From: Thermodesulfobacteriota bacterium
GTDB lineage: Bacteria; Desulfobacterota_D; UBA1144; Nemesobacterales; JAJCZQ01
Reading direction: 5' to 3'
Length of the DNA: 64,000 bases
NCBI GenBank assembly: GCA_965215275.1
Contig: OZ244044.1
Location: 608,001-672,000 of the forward strand
In this document: positions 25,430 to 36,700 of the stretch, in pieces
Layout: each line of letters opens with the position of its first letter
Numbering within the stretch: position 1 is the stretch's first letter
Made by a program: the position numbers and the translations under genes
The notes under the pieces: model-generated
What the model was told of the DNA's origin: nothing
Database searches by the model: none
Seen by the model: only the letters and a program-made list of their open reading frames with translations

Positions 25430-25880
25430 AGATCTTTTCAGTATGAGATATCATTTATACACTTGACATTCGTTCATAATACGAAGTGAAATATCAATGT
25501 TATGAAAAGTTCAAATATAAAAACGAGTAGTTCCATTACCCCCCCCCATCTAAATCAGTCCTTACCTTGGTCTTATTTCTTCTGTGCTTTATGCCCATAG
25601 GTGCATATGGTCATATCAAAGCTAATTATTGTGAGTCCAGTGAAACTGCACTGACAGTGGATGGAACTGCACACGATGGAAGTTTTGAGAGTCCCGGGGG
25701 ATGAGATTATTTTCAGAGATACATGTCTCATATAAAAACATAGCAACGCAGTTCTTTCCAAAGTATTGAACGGACTGAAATTTTCTCGTCAGAATATCCG
25801 CCGGCTGCTAACGTCATGTCTGTAGTTTATATCTTCAATGGAAAAGATATGTACCCCCTTATTGACAGTAAAACTCAAGA
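25430..25880 (+). pseudogene. Internally deleted stub of the surface-protein cassette (copy C)
   Basis: TTGACA at 25463, ATG 25502, C9 at 25539-25547, signal-like LTLVLFLLCFMPIGAYG, LTVDGTAHDGSFES, then TCTCATATAAAAACATAG and a 3' flank matching the ends of 20606 and 57700. Confidence 0.8.
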
Positions 25881-26153: not shown

Positions 26154-26876
26154 TTAGGGTTGTTTTTTGTGGATGGGACTATAATTATCTTCCAAAATAC
26201 TCAGTATATTCTGAAATTTCTTAGGAGGGATTTTTTTCACAAAACACCTATATACTTTGTAATGAGAACCACAATCTCTAAATTTTTTCTGACTACCGCA
26301 AAAACACAAATGGTGCCCCCTATTATGATTTTTCCCTGAGCAAATTTTAATAAAATCCTTTATTTGTTCAATAGAAGTATTTTTGCCTAATTTTTCCTTA
26401 TAAAACTCTGTAATACTTTTCTTTTTATCATGTGGGTATTCCCCAAATATCCAACCTTCCTTTACCCTACTAAAGTAGGATTGAGAAAAAAAGAACGGAT
26501 AAACTAAGTTGTCAATGAAACTTTTAAAAGGAGCATCCAGATCAATTCTCATCCACTGTTCTTCATCCATTCCTAAACAACAAACACCATCAGTATAAAA
26601 ATGTTTATTGGCATTTTTATCTTTTATTCTATTTCCAGATTCTAGAACCCTAGGCAAACTTTTTGGAAAGTTTTTATAGAAAATTAGTTGAATTTCAAAA
26701 TCATCTATATGAATTTTATCCGCATAAACTCCAAGACGACCAGAAATAATTAAATTTCCGTCCTTATCACAAGAATTTTTTATTCTTTGAAAAAAACGAT
26801 GATCCTGCGATTCCTTTATTATCTTGTGATAATATTTATTATTTACTATAATCTCCTCCATAAAGCTTTGGACCAA
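26154..26876 (-). CDS. Prokaryotic E2/UBC-like protein with C-terminal SEC-C metal-binding motif (CBASS accessory; start uncertain)
   Basis: FPKSLPRV...KHFYTDGVCCLG E2-like core; LCFCGSQKKFRDCGSH; directly downstream of the CD-NTase. Confidence 0.7.
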   Translation of the reverse strand: MVQSFMEEIIVNNKYYHKIIKESQDHRFFQRIKNSCDKDGNLIISGRLGVYADKIHIDDFEIQLIFYKNFPKSLPRVLESGNRIKDKNANKHFYTDGVCCLGMDEEQWMRIDLDAPFKSFIDNLVYPFFFSQSYFSRVKEGWIFGEYPHDKKKSITEFYKEKLGKNTSIEQIKDFIKICSGKNHNRGHHLCFCGSQKKFRDCGSHYKVYRCFVKKIPPKKFQNILSILEDNYSPIHKKQP

Positions 26877-27873
26877 TCACAGCAGTACCTGATTTTACTG
26901 CTGCATCCATAGCAGATATTTTTCTTTGTTTATCGTTGTGGTCTTCTTCCAAAGGAAAATCCTCTCCAAACTGTTCTATTAAAATCTTGCAAGCCTTTTC
27001 TAAACTCTTTTCATTAATTGCTTTCTCTAAAGCTTCATCAAGTTTAGCGAATCTATCAATAAGGTTAGTCATCCCTTCGTCACTAATTTTACCAAAAACA
27101 TCTTCATCTTTAGTAGGGGGTTTTTTTACAGTAATTCTTGAGCTATTTATAGAAATTACAACACTTCTTAAAGCCTCTATATCACTAAGGTTGTCATCAG
27201 AATCAAAAACAGGCTTTTTAAGTTCTTCTATACATAAAAGAAGCAATGCTAAGCCAATGGGTTTGTCATCACTTTCGTTCGGTATTGCTTTATCATTCCA
27301 CCTTTTTAAATAACGAACAACTCTTTGTAATTGATCTGAACCACTGCTATCGTTAGAGTCGCTAAAAGGTTTTCGAGCATCTTTAATGTATTTCTTTAAA
27401 GCTTTAGGGTCTGCAGGTTTCCAAGTCCAATTTTTATGAGCAAGGTTAAAATTTTCACTCTCTTGAGAGTCATTGCTTGCATAACAAACAAGATCAACAT
27501 GGTAACCCGCTCTATAACGTACACGAATGCAAGCCCCTTTCTCTTCTACATTTTTAGTGTGATTTTTAATAGCATCCAAAACCCACTTGCGTACTTTTTC
27601 TGCTTTATAACCGTCTTCTGCGCTATAATCGTCAGACTCTATATCAAAGACTAAACCAACATCAATATCATATTCTTGATCATCAGAAATTGGCTTTATT
27701 CCTACTCCATAAATATAGCTTCCTTGGTTAAGTAGCTCTGGAACAGGTTTTTCCTGCTCCTGAAGAGATTCTTTTATTTCGTTAAACAAAATATCTCTTT
27801 TTTCTTTTAATTCGTCTTTTTCCACTTTTATATCTTTGTGGAAGCTTTCAAACTGTTTTTGTAAATTGGCCAT
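26839..27873 (-). CDS. cGAS/DncV-like nucleotidyltransferase (CBASS cyclase)
   Basis: NQGSY..G, EYDIDVGLV, YHVDLV, VRYLKRWND, FGEDFP; ATG at 27873 follows AAGGAGGT. Confidence 0.9.
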   Translation of the reverse strand: MANLQKQFESFHKDIKVEKDELKEKRDILFNEIKESLQEQEKPVPELLNQGSYIYGVGIKPISDDQEYDIDVGLVFDIESDDYSAEDGYKAEKVRKWVLDAIKNHTKNVEEKGACIRVRYRAGYHVDLVCYASNDSQESENFNLAHKNWTWKPADPKALKKYIKDARKPFSDSNDSSGSDQLQRVVRYLKRWNDKAIPNESDDKPIGLALLLLCIEELKKPVFDSDDNLSDIEALRSVVISINSSRITVKKPPTKDEDVFGKISDEGMTNLIDRFAKLDEALEKAINEKSLEKACKILIEQFGEDFPLEEDHNDKQRKISAMDAAVKSGTAVIGPKLYGGDYSK

Positions 27874-28982
27874 GGGTACCTCCTTCTGGTAAGTCATTTA
27901 AGTTAATAAAAATATTTTTTAATATATTGAGTTTTGTATCTTCAGTTTCATTACAGGTTTTACCATAAATCTCCTTTCCGTCTTCTGCTCCCAAGCTAAT
28001 TAAAGTATTACAGGCTTCTTTGGTTGCCTTATCAAGACCAATAACTTTTTCTTGAGCAGAAGATAAACACCTTTGTGGTAGTCTATAAATAGATACCTTC
28101 TTTCCTAAAGCTGACAATCTCTTCTCTAGGAAATTACATATAAATTCAACATTCTTAGCTTGAGCGTTCCCCGAAATTTCTAATATATCAACTCCCCAAC
28201 CCCAGTCTATAATACCTTTTTCTACATTCTCATCTTTAAGAGTTTCTCCAAAACTGGCTGGGCAGGTTCCAATTGAAATAATATCTATAGGCTGATTTTT
28301 ATCTGAAATCTCTAAAGCTTCAATCAAACCCATTAGTGTTGGATTATTTGCCCAAATACCCCCATCAACAAAATGTTCTGTTACATTTGAATTATCTGGT
28401 TCAGGAATAGCTACTACAGGGAAAATAATTGGTGCAGCTGAAGTAGCAAGACAAACATCTGCTAAATTCCTTTTATTATCAGCATGTTTTTTGGGATTGT
28501 GAGGAGTTTTAAATACTCTTGGCGAATAGTCCACCAGTTTAATTGATGCAATACAAAGTCCTATTTTCCTTCGAGTATAAATTTGTTCAATTGTTTCGTC
28601 TTTAAAGAGTTCTTCTAATATAACTCTTAAATGCTTATTTTCATTTGCTGGTTTTTTTTATATGACAAAAAGCCCAAATAATTTTTCTTAAAAAATTATT
28701 TGGTACCGGAGATTTAAAAATATTTTTTCCTTCTTTGTAATAAATTTCAATGATTTTATCAATCTCAATGCCTGCAACAAGACCTGCTGCTAGAATGCCA
28801 CCTGTACTTGTTCCAACTATCAGGTCAAAACCTTTGCCTATATCCTTATTGCTTGATTTGCAAAACCTCTCAGAAAGGGATTTTAGCAATGATGCAGTAT
28901 AGAGACCCCTCATTCCTCCACCATCTAAAGAAAGCACTCTATAAGGCTTAAAGTGTTCTTTGTCTTTTAATTTTTCATACAT
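27848..28982 (-). pseudogene. Patatin-like phospholipase CBASS effector (CapV-like), split by a +1 frameshift in an A8 run
   Basis: 5' part has LSLDGGGMRG and GTSTGG; 3' part has ATSAAP and FVDGGIWANNP. Removing one base from T8 at 28652-28659 fuses them into 377 aa. Confidence 0.85.
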
Positions 28983-29107
28983 TACACTACCCCTATGCTT
29001 GAAACCATATTGCCTAAATAAACAAATTTTTCTCTTGAAATATCATTGTTTTTGTTATAACATATAATTATACCTTATTGGCATATTAAAATCAAGGAAG
29101 GCTTGCT

Positions 29108-30904
29108 GTGAAAGATAAATTATTGAAAATAAGAAAAAAACTCAATCTCAGTCAAGAAGAGCTTGCCACAAGGCTAGAAGTTTCTTTCGCTACAGTCAAC
29201 CGTTGGGAAAATAGCAAGACGACCATTAGAAAGAAGGCAAAAGAAAGAATAGAAGAACTTTACAGAAATGTTGCCTACATAGACGAGACTGTAGAAACAG
29301 ATATAAGTGCAAGAAGAAAAAAAAGAGGGGTTTCCAAAAGTTCAATTCTGAGCAATAAATCTATGGAGAAAATGCTATGGAATGCGGCTTGCTCCATAAG
29401 AGGCGAAAAAGATGCTCCTAAATTTAAAGATTATATTCTTCCACTTCTTTTTATCAAACGGCTTTCAGATGTATTTGATGATGAGGTTAAGCGAATTACT
29501 GAAGAGTTAGGTGATGAACAGACAGCCTTAAAAATGATTAGGGCAGATAGGTCTCTAGTTTGGTTTTACATTCCTCCAGAAGCACATTGGTCTGTTATCA
29601 GTGGAAAAGAAAAAATTAAATACCCTAAGGGTAAAAGACCTCATAGTTTAGGAGAGCAATTAACCTTAACAATGAGAGCTATTGTTAAAGAAAACCCACA
29701 GCATTCATTAGGTGGTGTGACAGACCTTGTGGATTACAATGCCACTCAACAAGGGGAAAGAAAAATCAGTGATAGAGTTTTAAGAAGAATTATAGATGCT
29801 TTTTCTGATTCAAGATACCGCTTGGGTTTAAAGGATATTGAACCTGATTCTTTAGGTCGATCTTATGAGTATCTTCTCAGAAAATTTGCTGAAGGCAGAG
29901 GCCAAACTGCTGGAGAGTTTTTTACTCCTCGTGAAGTCGGTTTTATTATAGCAAATATTCTAAATCCGAAAGGTGGAGAGACCGCCTATGACTATGCTTG
30001 TGGTTCTTTTGGTCTTTTAGTTAAACTCCAATTGGTATTAAGACAAAATAATCCTCTGAACAGACTTCCTTTAAAACTTTACGGACAGGAATTAAACAAG
30101 GACAACTTTATATTAGGGTGCATGAATAAAATTCTTCATGACATTGATGGAGAAATTAAACGAGGGGATTCCATGCAAAAACCTAGGTTTCGCGAAAAAG
30201 ATGGAACTCTTAAAACCTTTGACATAATTATAGCCAACCCTATATGGAATCAGCCTTTCGACCCCTCTATTTATGAAAACGATCCTTTTGAGCGATTTGA
30301 AAATCATGGTGGCTTTACTGCTGGTAAAGGAGACTGGGCTTGGCTTCAACATACTGCAGCTTCTCTTAATTCAAAAGGTCGTGCTGCAATTGTTTTAGAT
30401 ACAGGAGCCGTTACTCGTGGCAGTGGCAGTAAACACGATGATAAAGAAAAGATGATTCGAAAATGGTTTATAGAAAAGGATTTAATAGAAGGAGTTATTT
30501 TATTTCCTGAAAACCTTTTCTATAACACTTCAGCTGCCGGGATTATTGTTTTCTTAAATAAAAATAAGCCAAAAAATAAAAGGGATAAAATCATATTATT
30601 AAATGCCAGCAAAGAATTCTATAAGGGAAGACCAAAAAACCATATCTCAGAAGAAGGCATTGAGCGGATCGCAGAAGCTTTTATAAAAGGAGAAGATGAA
30701 GAAAAATTTGTGAAAGTCATCACGAAAAGAGAAGCAGAAAAAAATGATTACAACCTATCCCCCTCTCTATATATTAGTTTAGTGGATACAGAAACTTATA
30801 GAGAAATCCCTGAAGTGCTTGATGAACTTAAAAACTTAAGAAAAAAATCAAACAAGCTTGATAAAGAACTTAGTGAAGTGATGTTCTTGATAGAGCTTAA
30901 TTAA
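29108..30904 (+). CDS. hsdM: Type I restriction-modification methyltransferase fused to an N-terminal XRE HTH
   Basis: LSQEELATRLEVSFATVNRWEN; LWNAACSIRG, YEYLLRKFAE, GEFFTP, DYACGS, ANPIW, NLFYNTS. Confidence 0.9.
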   Translation: MKDKLLKIRKKLNLSQEELATRLEVSFATVNRWENSKTTIRKKAKERIEELYRNVAYIDETVETDISARRKKRGVSKSSILSNKSMEKMLWNAACSIRGEKDAPKFKDYILPLLFIKRLSDVFDDEVKRITEELGDEQTALKMIRADRSLVWFYIPPEAHWSVISGKEKIKYPKGKRPHSLGEQLTLTMRAIVKENPQHSLGGVTDLVDYNATQQGERKISDRVLRRIIDAFSDSRYRLGLKDIEPDSLGRSYEYLLRKFAEGRGQTAGEFFTPREVGFIIANILNPKGGETAYDYACGSFGLLVKLQLVLRQNNPLNRLPLKLYGQELNKDNFILGCMNKILHDIDGEIKRGDSMQKPRFREKDGTLKTFDIIIANPIWNQPFDPSIYENDPFERFENHGGFTAGKGDWAWLQHTAASLNSKGRAAIVLDTGAVTRGSGSKHDDKEKMIRKWFIEKDLIEGVILFPENLFYNTSAAGIIVFLNKNKPKNKRDKIILLNASKEFYKGRPKNHISEEGIERIAEAFIKGEDEEKFVKVITKREAEKNDYNLSPSLYISLVDTETYREIPEVLDELKNLRKKSNKLDKELSEVMFLIELN

Positions 30905-31164
30905 GAGAGAAACTTTATGAAAATAAACCAAAATCAGAAGAAAAAAGATAATCTTATTTTAAAACCGTAAAATTAGAAAGGTTGGCATAATTAAAGAAAT
31001 AATACTACTCTGTAATGTATGTTTTATGAACTTTGACAGACAGTATTGATCCAACAGATTATTATAAGGAAAATACGAAAAAGAGATAGGCAAAAGAGTG
31101 ATTTTCAAAAAAACTATTTGAGCAAAACAAAGCAATTAAATTCAAAAATAAAAGGAAATATAAT

Positions 31165-31827
31165 ATGGAACAAAAGAACAATCAAACCTCCCCCAATCAA
31201 AATTATACAGCACCTGAATATGATAAAAACAATTTCCATTGCCCCCACTGCAATGTTTACGCTCATCAAATCTGGCATTATGCCAGCCGTGCAGGGTACT
31301 CCTCATATTCTATTAAAAACATTAAATTTAGCTTCTGTAGTTGTTGCAACAAATACTCTATATGGGTGGATGAAAAAATGGTTTATCCTAACCTACCTAC
31401 AGTTCCACCTCCTGTTGCTGAAATGCCAAAAAATGTAAAAGAAACCTATAATCAAGCAAGAAGTATTATAAACCTCTCCCCAATTGGAGCTTGTGCTTTG
31501 TTAAGACTATCCATTCAATTACTTATTAAAGAACTCGGAGAGGATGAAACAAATTTAAGCAAGGCTATCGGTAACTTGGTCAAAAAAGGATTGCCAGAAA
31601 GAATTACACAAGCTTTAGATTCAGTAAGGGTCATTGGAAACAACGCAGTTCATTCAGGGAAAATAAATATTGAAGATAATTCAAAAATAGCTAGTTCTTT
31701 ATTTCAACTTGTAAATTTTATTACTGAAAAAACAATTGTAGAAAACAAACAGGTTGAAAGAATTTTTAACTATTTACCTGAAAATCAAAAACAAGCAATA
31801 GAAAGAAGAGATAATAATAATAGTTAA
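31165..31827 (+). CDS. DUF4145-like (HEPN-related) protein with N-terminal Cys pairs
   Basis: CPHC...CSCC; ACALLRL; LDSVRVIGNNAVH (R-X6-H). Confidence 0.75.
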   Translation: MEQKNNQTSPNQNYTAPEYDKNNFHCPHCNVYAHQIWHYASRAGYSSYSIKNIKFSFCSCCNKYSIWVDEKMVYPNLPTVPPPVAEMPKNVKETYNQARSIINLSPIGACALLRLSIQLLIKELGEDETNLSKAIGNLVKKGLPERITQALDSVRVIGNNAVHSGKINIEDNSKIASSLFQLVNFITEKTIVENKQVERIFNYLPENQKQAIERRDNNNS

Positions 31828-31838
31828 AGTCTAAAAAT

Positions 31839-33107
31839 ATGGAAAAAACCAAGCAAACAAAAATTGGAGAAATTCCTGAGAGTTGGAATCTTAAAACTCT
31901 AAAAGAAGGGGCTAATATTAGTTCAGGAAATTCCGCTCCTCAAGAAAATAGTTTTTTTATAAATGGGAAATTTCCTTTTTGCAGAACTTCAGACGTAGCT
32001 ATAGCCCATATATCAGATAATTTTTATGAAATAAAAGATTACTTAAATGAGGATGGTATAAAAGGTCTAAAGTTATATAAAAAGGGAACGATTTTAATGC
32101 CTAAAAATGGACTTTTAAATCATCGAGTTCTATTAAGTATAAATAGTTATGTCTCAAGTCATCTAGCAATAGTATGCTCATACCCAAAAAAGTTTAATAC
32201 AAAATTTTTATTTTATTTTCTATTAGGAATAGACTCTAAAAATCTTACAAGTACTCAAGATTATCCATCACTAAAATTAGAAGAAATAAAAAAAGTTAAA
32301 ATCCCCCACCCTCCTCTTTCTGAACAAAAGAAAATTGCAGCAGTACTTAATAAAATTAAACGAAATATCAAAATTAAAGACGAACTTATTAAAAAAACTC
32401 AGGAACTCAAAAGATCCACAATGAAATATCTTTTTACTTATGGAACAAAAGTAGAAAAAACCATACAAACAGAGATTGGAAAGATTCCTGAAAGCTGGGA
32501 TGTTAAAAGCTTTTCAGAGTTGTGTAGCTTTTCAACAGGGAAAAACCCGGCAAGAAATATGGAAATATATTGGGATAATGGAACTTTTCGATGGCTTACT
32601 ATATCTGATATGAAGCAAGGACAAACCATTTCAAAAACAAAGGAAAAAGTATCACAACAAGCTATAGTAGAATGCTTTAAGGGAAAATATGTAAAAAAAG
32701 GAACTTTATTGATGAGTTTAAAACCAACTATAGGTAGAACTTGTTTTGCAGGATGTGACCTTGTGCATAACGAAGATATAATTTCTATCAATCCCAAAAA
32801 AGAATTGAATAAAACTTTTATCAGCTATTATTTGCCTATATTAGATTATAAACAATATGAAGACCGTCAGATAAAGGGACACACTTTGAATAAGGCAAAA
32901 ATAAGTAAAATCCAAATCCCCCTACCCTCTCTTCCTGAACAAAAGAAAATTGCCTCAATCCTTTCAAAACTAGATGAAAGAATTAAAAACTATGAAGAAC
33001 AAAAAACAAATATTCAGACTCTTTTTAAGTCCATGCTCAGCAAACTTACAACAGGGCAAATTCGAGTCCATAATTTAGACATTGATACCTCGGAGGTTGA
33101 GCAATGA
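31839..33107 (+). CDS. hsdS: Type I R-M specificity subunit
   Basis: Two TRDs with repeated IGEIPESW / IGKIPESW and PxLxEQKKIA conserved regions. Confidence 0.92.
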   Translation: MEKTKQTKIGEIPESWNLKTLKEGANISSGNSAPQENSFFINGKFPFCRTSDVAIAHISDNFYEIKDYLNEDGIKGLKLYKKGTILMPKNGLLNHRVLLSINSYVSSHLAIVCSYPKKFNTKFLFYFLLGIDSKNLTSTQDYPSLKLEEIKKVKIPHPPLSEQKKIAAVLNKIKRNIKIKDELIKKTQELKRSTMKYLFTYGTKVEKTIQTEIGKIPESWDVKSFSELCSFSTGKNPARNMEIYWDNGTFRWLTISDMKQGQTISKTKEKVSQQAIVECFKGKYVKKGTLLMSLKPTIGRTCFAGCDLVHNEDIISINPKKELNKTFISYYLPILDYKQYEDRQIKGHTLNKAKISKIQIPLPSLPEQKKIASILSKLDERIKNYEEQKTNIQTLFKSMLSKLTTGQIRVHNLDIDTSEVEQ

Positions 33108-33350
33108 AAAAAATGACCAAACAAATTTATTCAGTAGTCAAATTACTATATATACCTAAAGGACAAAAAAGGGAATTCAGGTTAAATTAGATAAAGAGAC
33201 GATCTGGCTATCACTAAATCAGATGGTTCTAAAAAATTTTACGATAATGCTTTAATCTCTCTAACTCTCCTTATAGCTGAAAGCAACCCTCAAGATAAAG
33301 ACCTTGTCATTAGTCTCATTGCAAATTTAATAAATAAAAGAAATAAATAG
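33104..33350 (+). pseudogene. Remnant of a RhuM/Fic-DOC-like gene (N- and C-terminal pieces joined)
   Basis: Fragments in different frames: VKLDKETIWLSLNQM and YDNALISLTLLIAESNPQDKDLVISLIANL. Confidence 0.6.
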
Positions 33351-33612: not shown

Positions 33613-33682
33613 TTTAAGAGAATACTCCTTCCATCCCGAAGATCATTATCATTGCAAGAAAGGAAAGAGAAAGACGTTACAC

Positions 33683-33712
33683 TTGACATTCGTTCATAAT
33701 ACCTGTTAAAGT
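33683..33712 (+). promoter_or_regulatory. Cassette promoter, copy D
   Basis: TTGACA-N18-TAAAGT in the conserved block. Confidence 0.65.
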
Positions 33713-33721
33713 AAAAGAGTT

Positions 33722-36700
33722 ATGAAACATTTCAAAACAAAAACACGTAATTCCATTACTCCCCCCCCCCCCGTGTATACATGACCTTTCAGTCTGGTAT
33801 AAGTATTTTTTAAGAACAATGTTTAAGATAATACCCCCCCCCATCTAAGTCATTACTAACATTAGTCTTATTTCTTCTGTGTATCATGGTCATAGCTGCA
33901 AAAGGACAGAGCAGTCTGGAAGAAACATTATCTGAATGCAGAGGTAACAGTGCAGAAACGGAAGATCCGTTATACGGATGTCAGTGGCATCTGAAGAACA
34001 CGGGGCAGTTTATTTATTCAGGAAAGGAAATAACAGCAGGAGAAGATATAAACATAGAGGGGGTGTGGAACGAAGACGTATACGGTACCGGAATTAACGT
34101 AGCAATAGTAAGTGACGGTATCGACCTTTCACATGAGGACCTTTCTGCAAACGTCCGTTCCGGACCGAACTATGATCTTTCTGGAAGAAACAGTTCTGAA
34201 GAGAACAGTTCTGAAAAAGATAATTCAGAAAGAGATGATCATTCTGACGGTTCATCCTTTACCGGAACACGAGCGGCAGGTGTTATTGCAGCGGCTGGAT
34301 ATAACGGACTGGGAGTAAGAGGAACAGCACCTGGTGCGAGTATATACAGTTACAGGTTATCCGATGATCTCAGGGAAGCGGACGCGGTGGTCCGTAATAA
34401 GGAAATAACCGCTGTATCGGTTAACGGCCTGGGATCTGAGGACGGAGCTTTTTTTCAGGAGGCTTCAACTTCCTGGGAAGAAGGAGTGGAACTTGGTATA
34501 AGTAAAGGGTTTTATGGTAAAGGTGTGTTTTACGTCCGGGGAGCAGGGGACGGGCATGAGAATAACGATCAGGCTAATTTTTCTGAATATTCTAATTACT
34601 ACGGGGTAACATCTGTGTGTTCAACAGACGGTTTTGGAAAAAAGAGTATTTTTTCAGAAGAGGGAGTAAATCTATGGGTATGTGCACCTGGTTCTGATAT
34701 TGTAACCACAGATAACAACAACGATTACGTTGTAACATCCGGAACATTTCTATCAGCTTCACAGGTTGGAGGAGTGGCAGCACTGCTGAGAGAGGTAAAT
34801 GGACAGCTGAGCTGGAGGGATATAAAGCTTATACTTGCGGGTTCAGCACGTCAGAACGATTTTTCTGATATGAGCTGGGAGACTGGAACTGTTAAATACG
34901 GCTCTGATACGGAAAGATATAATTATAATCCTAAGTATGGTTTTGGAGTGGTAGACGCAGAAGCGGCGGCAGAACTTGCAAAAAGCTGGAAAGGCGTTGG
35001 AGAAATGAGGACCGTTACCGCCTTTTCAGATAAAGAGATAACAATTCCTGATGGAGAAGGAAATGGAGAAGGAGAAGCAGACGGGGTACTTGTCTCCAGA
35101 CTTATAATACCGGACCTGGAGGAAATATTTACGGAATTCGTTGAGGTAGAACTTGTTTTTTCTCATGACCGCTTACAGGACCTTGATATAAAAATAACCT
35201 CTCCTTCCGGAACAGTATCTGAACTTGTAAGGGAGTTTTCAGGGGAGGAAGAAGACGCTGAGATCAGTTACCTGAGAAGAACACATCGTTTCGGGTCGGC
35301 AAAGCACCTCGGAGAAGACCCTTCCGGAGAATGGGTCCTTAAGATATCCGATACTGCTTCCGGAGATGAAGAAGATGGAGAAAATACTGTTACCTTACAC
35401 TCATGGAGCATTAAGGTATACGGGAATTTTTATCAGGGACCTGGCAGTGAGATAAGTGCTAAACATCATGATCTTAGTTTTGGTGGTGCAACGGTAGATG
35501 AGCAGGTGTATGTTGTACGCTCAATAGCAGGTCTTCCAGTAACTCTGCCTGAAGCAACGAGAGGTACTGCTCCATATACTTACAGTTTAACTCCTCGTTT
35601 ACCTTCTGGATTGAACTTTAACAGTAACGATCGGCAAATAAATGGATTACCTACCAGTGTAAAAAGTAAAACTGAGTATACATATAAAGTAACGGACAAT
35701 GATGGAGATATGGATAATCTGACGTTCGGAATTACTGTAGAAGCTAATACCGTACCAAGCTTTACTAGCGGTGAGATGATAGATAATCTGGTGTATACAG
35801 TTGGGGTTCAAATAACACCAGTAACTCTGCCAGAGGCAACGGGAGGGAATGGAGCATTAAGATATTTACTTTCTCTTTTACCTCTTGGATTGAATTTTGA
35901 TCCTGACACCCGAGTAATAAGTGGCACACCCACCCGTGCATCTATTAGGCATATGCTATATACAGTATTAGACATAGATGGAAGTAGTGCTCAATTAGAG
36001 TTCAGGATAAGAATAACAGTAGCAGAACCAAACACGGAACCAACCTTCGGCAGTGAAACGATAGATAATAAAGTGTATATAAACGGCATTACAGCAGTAA
36101 ATGAAACACTGCCAGAAGCAACGTCAGGGAATGCTCCATTAACTTACAGTTTAACTCCTGCCTTACCTGCCGGATTGGATTTTACCCCTGCTACACAAGT
36201 TATAAGCGGAACACCGACTACTGCAACGTCTGAGACTGATTACACGTATACAGTAACGGACGCAGATAATGATACAGATGAACTGGAGTTCAGTATTACA
36301 GTGGAAGAAGACAGCATGCCGGAGATAGACGGGAGTACAATACCAGCACAGATGGAGTACAGGGCAGGGGGAGCACCATTAAGGTTTCCTGAGGCAACGG
36401 GAGGTAATGCACCTGTTACTTACAGTATAACACCTGAACTGCCAGCTGGATTGAGATTTAACGAAGTAACGCGGGAAATAAGTGGGACACCCAGGAGTGC
36501 ATTAACTGGTACTTACATGTATACGGTAACGGACAGGAATGGAGATACGGACGAGGTGAGTTTCATGCTCAGTGTAATACCAGGAACGTCAGGTACTGAT
36601 GCAGGCGGAGGTGGAGGATGTGCGATCTCTGATCAGAGCAGCGTTGTCTCTGACCTGCTCGGAGCAGTGGTATGTCTGATGCTTATACCTGTGTCAGTAA

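Follow-up and report, generated by a model that had tools for sequence, protein, structure and literature searches.

Which feature of a signal enzyme's tail is recognised by an E2-like protein encoded without an E1, and what does this E2 do with it? The question is raised by a three-gene operon on the minus strand of a 64,000-nucleotide stretch of DNA (the window) from a Thermodesulfobacteriota bacterium. A preliminary description, made from the sequence alone, had proposed overlapping genes for a patatin, a cGAS/DncV-like nucleotidyltransferase (CD-NTase, the cyclase) and an E2-like protein, without E1 or JAB gene, as a short type II CBASS (an antiphage signaling system based on cyclic oligonucleotides). 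Both points were confirmed. All three genes are present and overlap on the minus strand, and the operon lacks E1 and JAB since the two ThiF matches and the single JAB match of the genome are 300-780 kb away. PADLOC models match the E2 (E 1e-42), the cyclase (8e-88) and both pieces of the patatin (1e-48 and 3e-34); the latter are CBASS phospholipase models, as expected of a cognate effector gene. Together with the NCBIfam models, the E2 fold match and the operon content, this identifies the locus as a short type II (E2-only) CBASS in which a patatin and a clade-B-like CD-NTase accompany an E2 of UBC fold. No second genomic copy of the three genes was detected by tblastn at E 1e-4. The full reading, in which the patatin is split and the E2 would grip the cyclase tail, cut it with no need of E1 or ATP and join the cyclase to a lysine, has in our estimate a probability of about two in three. 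The features of the operon are:

28641..28982, minus strand: N-terminal piece (113 residues) of a CapV-like patatin phospholipase, with GGGMRG and GTSTG motifs and a premature stop after a frameshift
28652..28659, minus strand: A8 run (T8 on the plus strand), site of the patatin frame shift, present in the sequence and in the contigs of four runs from one study
27848..28657, minus strand: C-terminal patatin piece in a second frame, with the DGG motif, overlapping the cyclase start by 26 nt
26839..27873, minus strand: CD-NTase of 344 residues, closest to clade B, with a match to NF041078 and AGGAGG upstream
26842..26871, minus strand: cyclase tail P335-K-L-Y-G-G-D-Y-S-K344, a variant of [KR]-P-[WYH]-x with Leu replacing Pro
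26154..26861, minus strand: stand-alone E2 of 235 residues, with a UBC fold over about residues 1-145 (H87, C95, H144) and then a helical extension with SEC-C
26262..26306, minus strand: SEC-C knuckle C186-C188-C197-H200, a zinc site predicted from conserved ligands and profile matches

The cyclase matches the NCBIfam cGAS model NF041078 with 159 bits (cut-off 150) and its nucleotidyltransferase motifs are intact (QGSY at 50, DID at 69-71, HVDL). Its nearest relatives in sequence and structure are two clade B enzymes, DwCdnB (PDB 8YSN series) and BfCdnB (7LJO), with E 1e-35 and TM-scores of 0.75-0.76, although identity is only about 30%. The C-terminal alpha-helix and three-stranded sheet that bind the E2 in clade G were not found: the predicted structure ends in a helix (309-328) followed by a disordered coil without strands, where the tail pLDDT is 45-70. 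The C-terminus reads ...GPKLYGGDYSK, an extended tail with GG four residues before the end, as described previously.

The third protein carries the H87..G92..C95 core and the additional C186-x-C188..K192K193..D196C197..H200 residues listed in the preliminary description. Its structure model (pLDDT 92.5) shows a core of UBC type followed by a helical extension. In a VIA-align comparison the tied top matches are UFC1, the UEV domain of Tsg101 and Serratia SmE2 (8HSB_B), the last with a Z score of 9.6, a root-mean-square deviation of 3.6, 9% identity and 133 aligned residues, the longest alignment among the tied matches. In the family profile, the N-terminal part matches E2s and the C-terminal part SecA knuckles. 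The UBC fold, which had been named beforehand as a point on which the interpretation could fail, is thus supported by model, SmE2 match and profile alike. The family comprises 1265 clusters at E<=0.001. All 151 aligned homologues have C95 and H144, 149 have H87 and 147 the three knuckle cysteines, in a sample picked by whole-query similarity and therefore biased toward knuckle-bearing members. The ligands of the SEC-C pattern C-x-C-G-S-x-K-K-x-x-x-C-(x)-H are conserved in the family, the window's own Pfam score being 15.6, below the cut-off of 20.4. Residues C186, C188, C197 and H200 are predicted to bind zinc.

This SEC-C module had been presented as a trait of the locus. It is present, but it is not peculiar to it, being the norm in a large catalogued E2 subfamily. 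Seven PADLOC models of 216-241 positions (PDLC00865, 00872, 00861, 00871, 00833, 00870 and 00859) match residues 21-225 of the window E2, knuckle included, and the subfamily is therefore already catalogued. The same models match E2s located beside TIR proteins and PycC, and carry no mechanism. No report of SEC-C in CBASS E2s was found in the literature searched, which left most subscription papers, figures and preprint supplements out of reach. The accessible part of PMC11381338 describes SEC-C in another system, and the portions available of the two SmE2 accounts (10.1101/2022.05.25.493364 and PMC12948482) mention neither zinc nor SEC-C.

A word-based homologue search with the E2 returned one relative only, and the E2 alignment has no stretch usable for contig scans; homologues were therefore collected by cyclase-first scans and by whole-genome sweeps with hidden Markov models. 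This yielded 58 non-redundant partners of the E2 family, two fusions and two broken loci being set aside. The misses of the tally are L186, where the E2 is fused out of place and has no upstream partner, and L003, where the cyclase is broken. A proline precedes the aromatic residue (W 42, Y 12, H 4) in 56 of the 58, with Lys or Arg ahead of it in 49, and the motif lies 1-6 residues from the C-terminus in every one; the background frequency is 14 in 1069 genome open reading frames (ORFs). The residue following the aromatic (+1) is Gly in 12 partners and Arg in 11, and can be any of 12 amino acids. On these alignments, the conserved tail signal is [KR]-Pro-[W/Y/H]-x and not GG. The window tail has Leu where the family has Pro. 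No report of the Pro-aromatic tail was found in the same literature. A tail logo of 593 type II-short systems exists, according to the part of 10.1101/2022.03.31.486616 that is accessible, and the logos or tables published there and in the Serratia and TIR preprints may already show parts of this finding.

The tail had first been read as a ubiquitin-like signal, the Gly-Gly pair becoming active when DYSK is trimmed to expose G340. A Y-G-G-D-Y-x-K ending is shared by P0153, the closest homologue at 77% identity, and Gly or Ala is the usual conjugation residue of type II cyclases, as stated in the available portion of PMC11153139. However, GG occurs within the last 10 residues of only 2/58 partners and was rejected as a conserved signal. 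Likewise, 103/120 close cyclase homologues end in Pro-[W/Y/H/F]-x(2-8), with Gly at +1 in 25 and another residue in 78. Moreover, the glycine linked in Serratia directly follows the tyrosine, and the Tyr-Gly-Gly codons of the window cyclase overlap the E2 start ATG-GAG-GAG (Met-Glu-Glu; ATG at 26861-26859), an overlap which may itself fix the Gly codons at this locus. A Gly-Gly signal is accordingly improbable. The same overlap suggests that the motif could be a mere by-product of the E2 start codon, without any protein signal, given that CCA-TGG, TAT-GG and CAT-GG all contain ATG. An in-frame E2 ATG does lie inside the aromatic codon in the window and at nine other loci. Since these are only 10 of the 58, the overlap cannot explain the motif: 48 loci have no such ATG, at 16 the E2 frame is open only beyond the motif, and the motif survives in the linker of two cyclase-E2-SEC-C fusions. 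The artefact was rejected, and we consider it scarcely credible. The fusions themselves (L183:3848-5467 and L184:4631-6232) consist of a patatin followed by a single-chain CD-NTase-E2-SEC-C with Pro-Tyr-Ala in the linker, and are candidates for self-cleavage.

The tail and the E2 occur together. Among 118 complete non-redundant cyclases, 18 have both tail and E2-SEC-C, one has the tail only, one the E2 only and 98 neither. These were retained from 160 loci after removal of 42 (20 with less than 700 bp of sequence downstream, 12 duplicates, 8 running off a contig end and 2 broken). In 73 of the 98 cyclases with neither, the next ORF is of E1-E2 size, and all six of those scanned contain ThiF. 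On a quick cyclase tree, from whose alignment the tails were left out, the tail type shifts four times, at least three of these shifts being forced by well-supported branches. One close relative of the window cyclase (L082, 63% identical) combines a Ser-rich tail with Cap2. In E2-first sweeps of 301, 351, 401 and 301 genomes, the upstream gene carried the tail at 26/26 loci, of which four are centre genomes or repeats of earlier loci and two are mutually identical. One locus (L192) pairs a 167-residue, SmE2-like E2 without knuckle (E 1e-9) with a tail ending in F-Y-G-x. Another (L185:3273-11001) contains two close CBASS cassettes, effector-cyclase-E2-SEC-C and then a second cyclase of 496 residues.

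The same E2 family is also found beside partners other than CD-NTases. A second member in the genome of the window (G000:C1:943125-943808) lies behind two genes, one for SLATT and one for a ThsB-type TIR that ends in PSPPWSS; this genome carries the E2/tail pair in a CBASS as well as in a Thoeris form. Profile matches (PF08937, PF14015/PF18181, NF033634) identify a ThsB TIR beside a SLATT effector, the gene pair of Type VII Thoeris (ThsB TIR and SLATT effector ThsH); on that model, cADPR produced by the TIR would activate the SLATT protein. The locus (G000:C1:942196-943808, or L181:6197-7809) comprises SLATT, tailed ThsB-TIR and E2-SEC-C and is apparently intact, with no ATG near the start of the E2 frame. 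Among 120 TIR homologues, the Pro-Trp-x end is present in 16 of the 17 with at least 140 residues and in none of the 103 shorter ones. All four tailed TIR loci inspected (L181, L218, L219 and L250) have the E2 as next gene, and none of 21 untailed loci has one (viral contigs, 20 with more than 1.3 kb downstream). The TIR query had no match in 8 of 10 hand-picked genomes and its profile matched 2/201 and 1/101 genomes. In one of the tailed loci (L250:824-3128, minus strand), the SLATT gene is flanked by two TIR-like ORFs, the second recognised by eye, both ending in Pro-Trp-x, with one E2-SEC-C after them. Three Pycsar cyclases (PycC) beside this E2 carry the same tail (L193, L214 and L216). 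The pairing of a TIR with a lone E2 was not found in the literature covered; the accessible part of 10.64898/2025.12.03.692087 reports TIRs with a Gly conjugation tail beside Cap2/Cap3. Those systems differ in that a lone E2-SEC-C is present here and the Pro-Trp-x tail has no conserved Gly, a form that this part of the source does not mention. We tentatively propose, while regarding it as somewhat more likely to be wrong than right, that the zinc-knuckle E2 and the Pro-aromatic-x tail form a portable conjugation module, independent of E1 and ATP, that serves three unrelated kinds of signal enzyme (CD-NTases, Pycsar cyclases and Thoeris TIRs), links through a residue other than Gly and uses the knuckle as a phage-triggered lid.

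What the E2 does with the tail is suggested by Serratia SmE2. According to the accessible text of 10.1101/2022.05.25.493364, the catalytic residues are H87 and C101; H152 governs bond exchange, K159 is the isopeptide acceptor, G406 of the cyclase is the residue linked, and deletion of the C-terminal loop of SmE2 frees poly-cGAS. By analogy, the window E2 would grip the cyclase tail by its aromatic-containing motif (Pro-aromatic in the family), and Cys95 with His87 would attack the tail to give a thioester. Transfer to an E2 lysine, for which K146-K148 following H144 are candidates, would keep the cyclase in check, until phage infection frees active cyclase chains whose cyclic dinucleotide would activate CapV. 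Trimming of the tail by the E2 is plausible on this analogy. If cleavage occurs, we mildly favour the bond after G339, in the register of SmCdnG Y405-G406, with the aromatic residue as specificity anchor; a bond after Y338 is doubtful and one after G340 unlikely. Of the two glycines, G339 is the likelier to be exposed, if either is. The helical/SEC-C extension begins where the regulatory C-terminal loop of SmE2 lies. It may be a lid or trigger or, with about the same tentative standing, a docking surface replacing the CdnG alpha/three-strand motif absent from the window cyclase.

Alternatively, the E2 might regulate the signal enzyme as a clamp or sensor, holding its Pro-aromatic tail by non-covalent contacts with no cutting or ligation. 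UEV domains are peptide-binding E2 folds and rank among the top structural matches, and the +1 position accepts 12 amino acids, bulky ones included. Against this, the conservation of C95, H144 and H87 is hard to explain without catalysis, and the tail always lies 1-6 residues from the C-terminus. A simple clamp therefore appears unlikely, and we retain the covalent mechanism.

The effector is broken in the window. The patatin starts at the ATG at 28982 in one ORF (28982-28641) and continues in another frame, open over 28657-27848; no single intact frame was found. Compared with eight intact homologues, the halves abut at the T8 without loss of residues, and they retain GGGMRG, GTSTG and DGG, which are named as CapV motifs in the available part of PMC12480259. 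The A8 letters are identical, with no gaps, in the whole-stretch contigs of runs X1, X2, X3 and X4 (three samples, all from a single study that may itself have supplied the window and whose library type is not on record); the site lies outside the coverage of runs X5-X8 from other studies. Since the patatin is split by the frameshift, this copy is probably inactive and no longer kills infected cells. Further signs of decay are the Leu replacing Pro in the cyclase tail and G149S in the E2, a Gly in 143/151 homologues and in the closest one; nearby, the absence of an HsdR match for hsdM/hsdS and a broken ORF behind hsdS point the same way. The operon might instead still function, with slippage or a phase-variation switch at the A8 run giving some full-length lipase: the break falls inside a homopolymer, the two halves are complete with their catalytic motifs and the cyclase and E2 frames are open. 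However, no length variant was seen among the contigs covering the site, A8/T8 runs are common in the genome (240) and the same island shows the other signs of decay, so that a switch is unlikely. The locus is an ordinary CBASS of known type, probably represented here by a decaying copy.

Several observations weigh against the reading proposed for the operon. Foldseek with the E2 returned E2/UEV folds, none of them at E<=0.001, and phmmer gave no match in the PDB. Inactive UEV domains score level with SmE2, whose identity to the window E2 is the 9% given above, and no biochemistry on the E2-SEC-C subfamily was found in the literature. The four TIR-linked E2s form one clade and the three PycC-linked E2s another; they are not independent events, and should therefore be counted as three partner families rather than seven events. 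The frameshift is backed by one study alone, and contigs conceal minority alleles. Finally, 21/58 partners have Arg, Leu, Phe, Ile or Lys at +1, while in Serratia SmCdnG G406V/L abolished linkage and G406R abolished immunity, as reported in the accessible text of 10.1101/2022.05.25.493364. The chemistry of SmE2 therefore cannot carry over unchanged, and the E2-SEC-C family cannot obey the restriction to Gly or Ala that applies in Serratia.

The operon is part of a low-GC island (29-36% over 25-34 kb of the window vs 42.5% genome-wide) with two further features upstream of the patatin:

29067..29095, minus strand: sigma-70-like consensus, 10/12 positions, upstream of the patatin, from a consensus match alone
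29108..33107, plus strand: divergent neighbours in the same island, in order an HTH-fused HsdM, a DUF4145/PD-T7-4-like gene and HsdS

A promoter scan of the region gave 18 matches vs 15.4 in shuffled sequences, which is no excess. HsdR has no match anywhere in the genome, and hsdM/hsdS are therefore probably a methylase-only remnant. After hsdS, a broken ORF remnant in three frames (33104-33350) appears to resemble a Fic/RhuM-type gene. The island is flanked by a genome-wide repeat (25458-25547 and 33678-33767) with a 19-nt core in 16 exact and 30 near copies. The left copy precedes an apparent decayed gene start and the right copy an S8-protease gene (33886). These repeats were rejected as mobile-element ends: the right copy runs into the S8-protease gene and the contig joints fit a multicopy repeat. 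In a separate locus (L191:5111-8673), tandem small E2-like genes are followed by E1-like, JAB-like and metallo-beta-lactamase-like ORFs, recognised by eye, with a Bil/Bub-type resemblance.

E2-only CBASS are already catalogued (616 systems, according to the part of PMC12948482 available), and one member has been solved structurally. This member, Serratia marcescens SmCdnG-SmE2 (PDB 8HSB, 8YJY and 9KKB; 10.1101/2022.05.25.493364 and PMC12948482), resembles the window operon in combining an effector, a CD-NTase and a lone E2 without E1 or JAB; likewise shared are the UBC fold with His...Cys...His and an aromatic residue followed by Gly near the cyclase end, with extra residues after it. It differs in several respects. 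SmE2 has 162 residues and no SEC-C, whereas the 235-residue window E2 has the helical/SEC-C extension. The window cyclase is clade-B-like rather than a CdnG and lacks the E2-binding motif of alpha-helix and three strands. Tails of the present family keep Pro-aromatic rather than Gly, although Gly does follow Tyr338 in the window. The window effector is a (broken) patatin, that of Serratia a 2TM-SAVED protein. Type II (long) CBASS, with Cap2 (E1-E2) and Cap3 (JAB), is used by the close relative mentioned above and has Ser-rich tails ending in Ala; its ATP-dependent E1 chemistry and its tail are different, and it is absent from the window operon.

The locus thus gives entry to a large, already catalogued E2 subfamily, and bench work would best be directed at the tail shared across systems. 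Cutting and ligation at residues such as Arg, Ser or the aromatic itself would be a case of ubiquitin-like conjugation that involves neither E1 nor a Gly/Ala terminus. Processing of the TIR as well would mean that CBASS, Pycsar and Thoeris have one regulator in common. What triggers E2-only systems is stated to be unknown in the accessible text of the Serratia preprint (10.1101/2022.05.25.493364), and the SEC-C knuckle is a concrete candidate for it. The two E2/tail pairs of this genome are suited to a comparison of cross-specificity.

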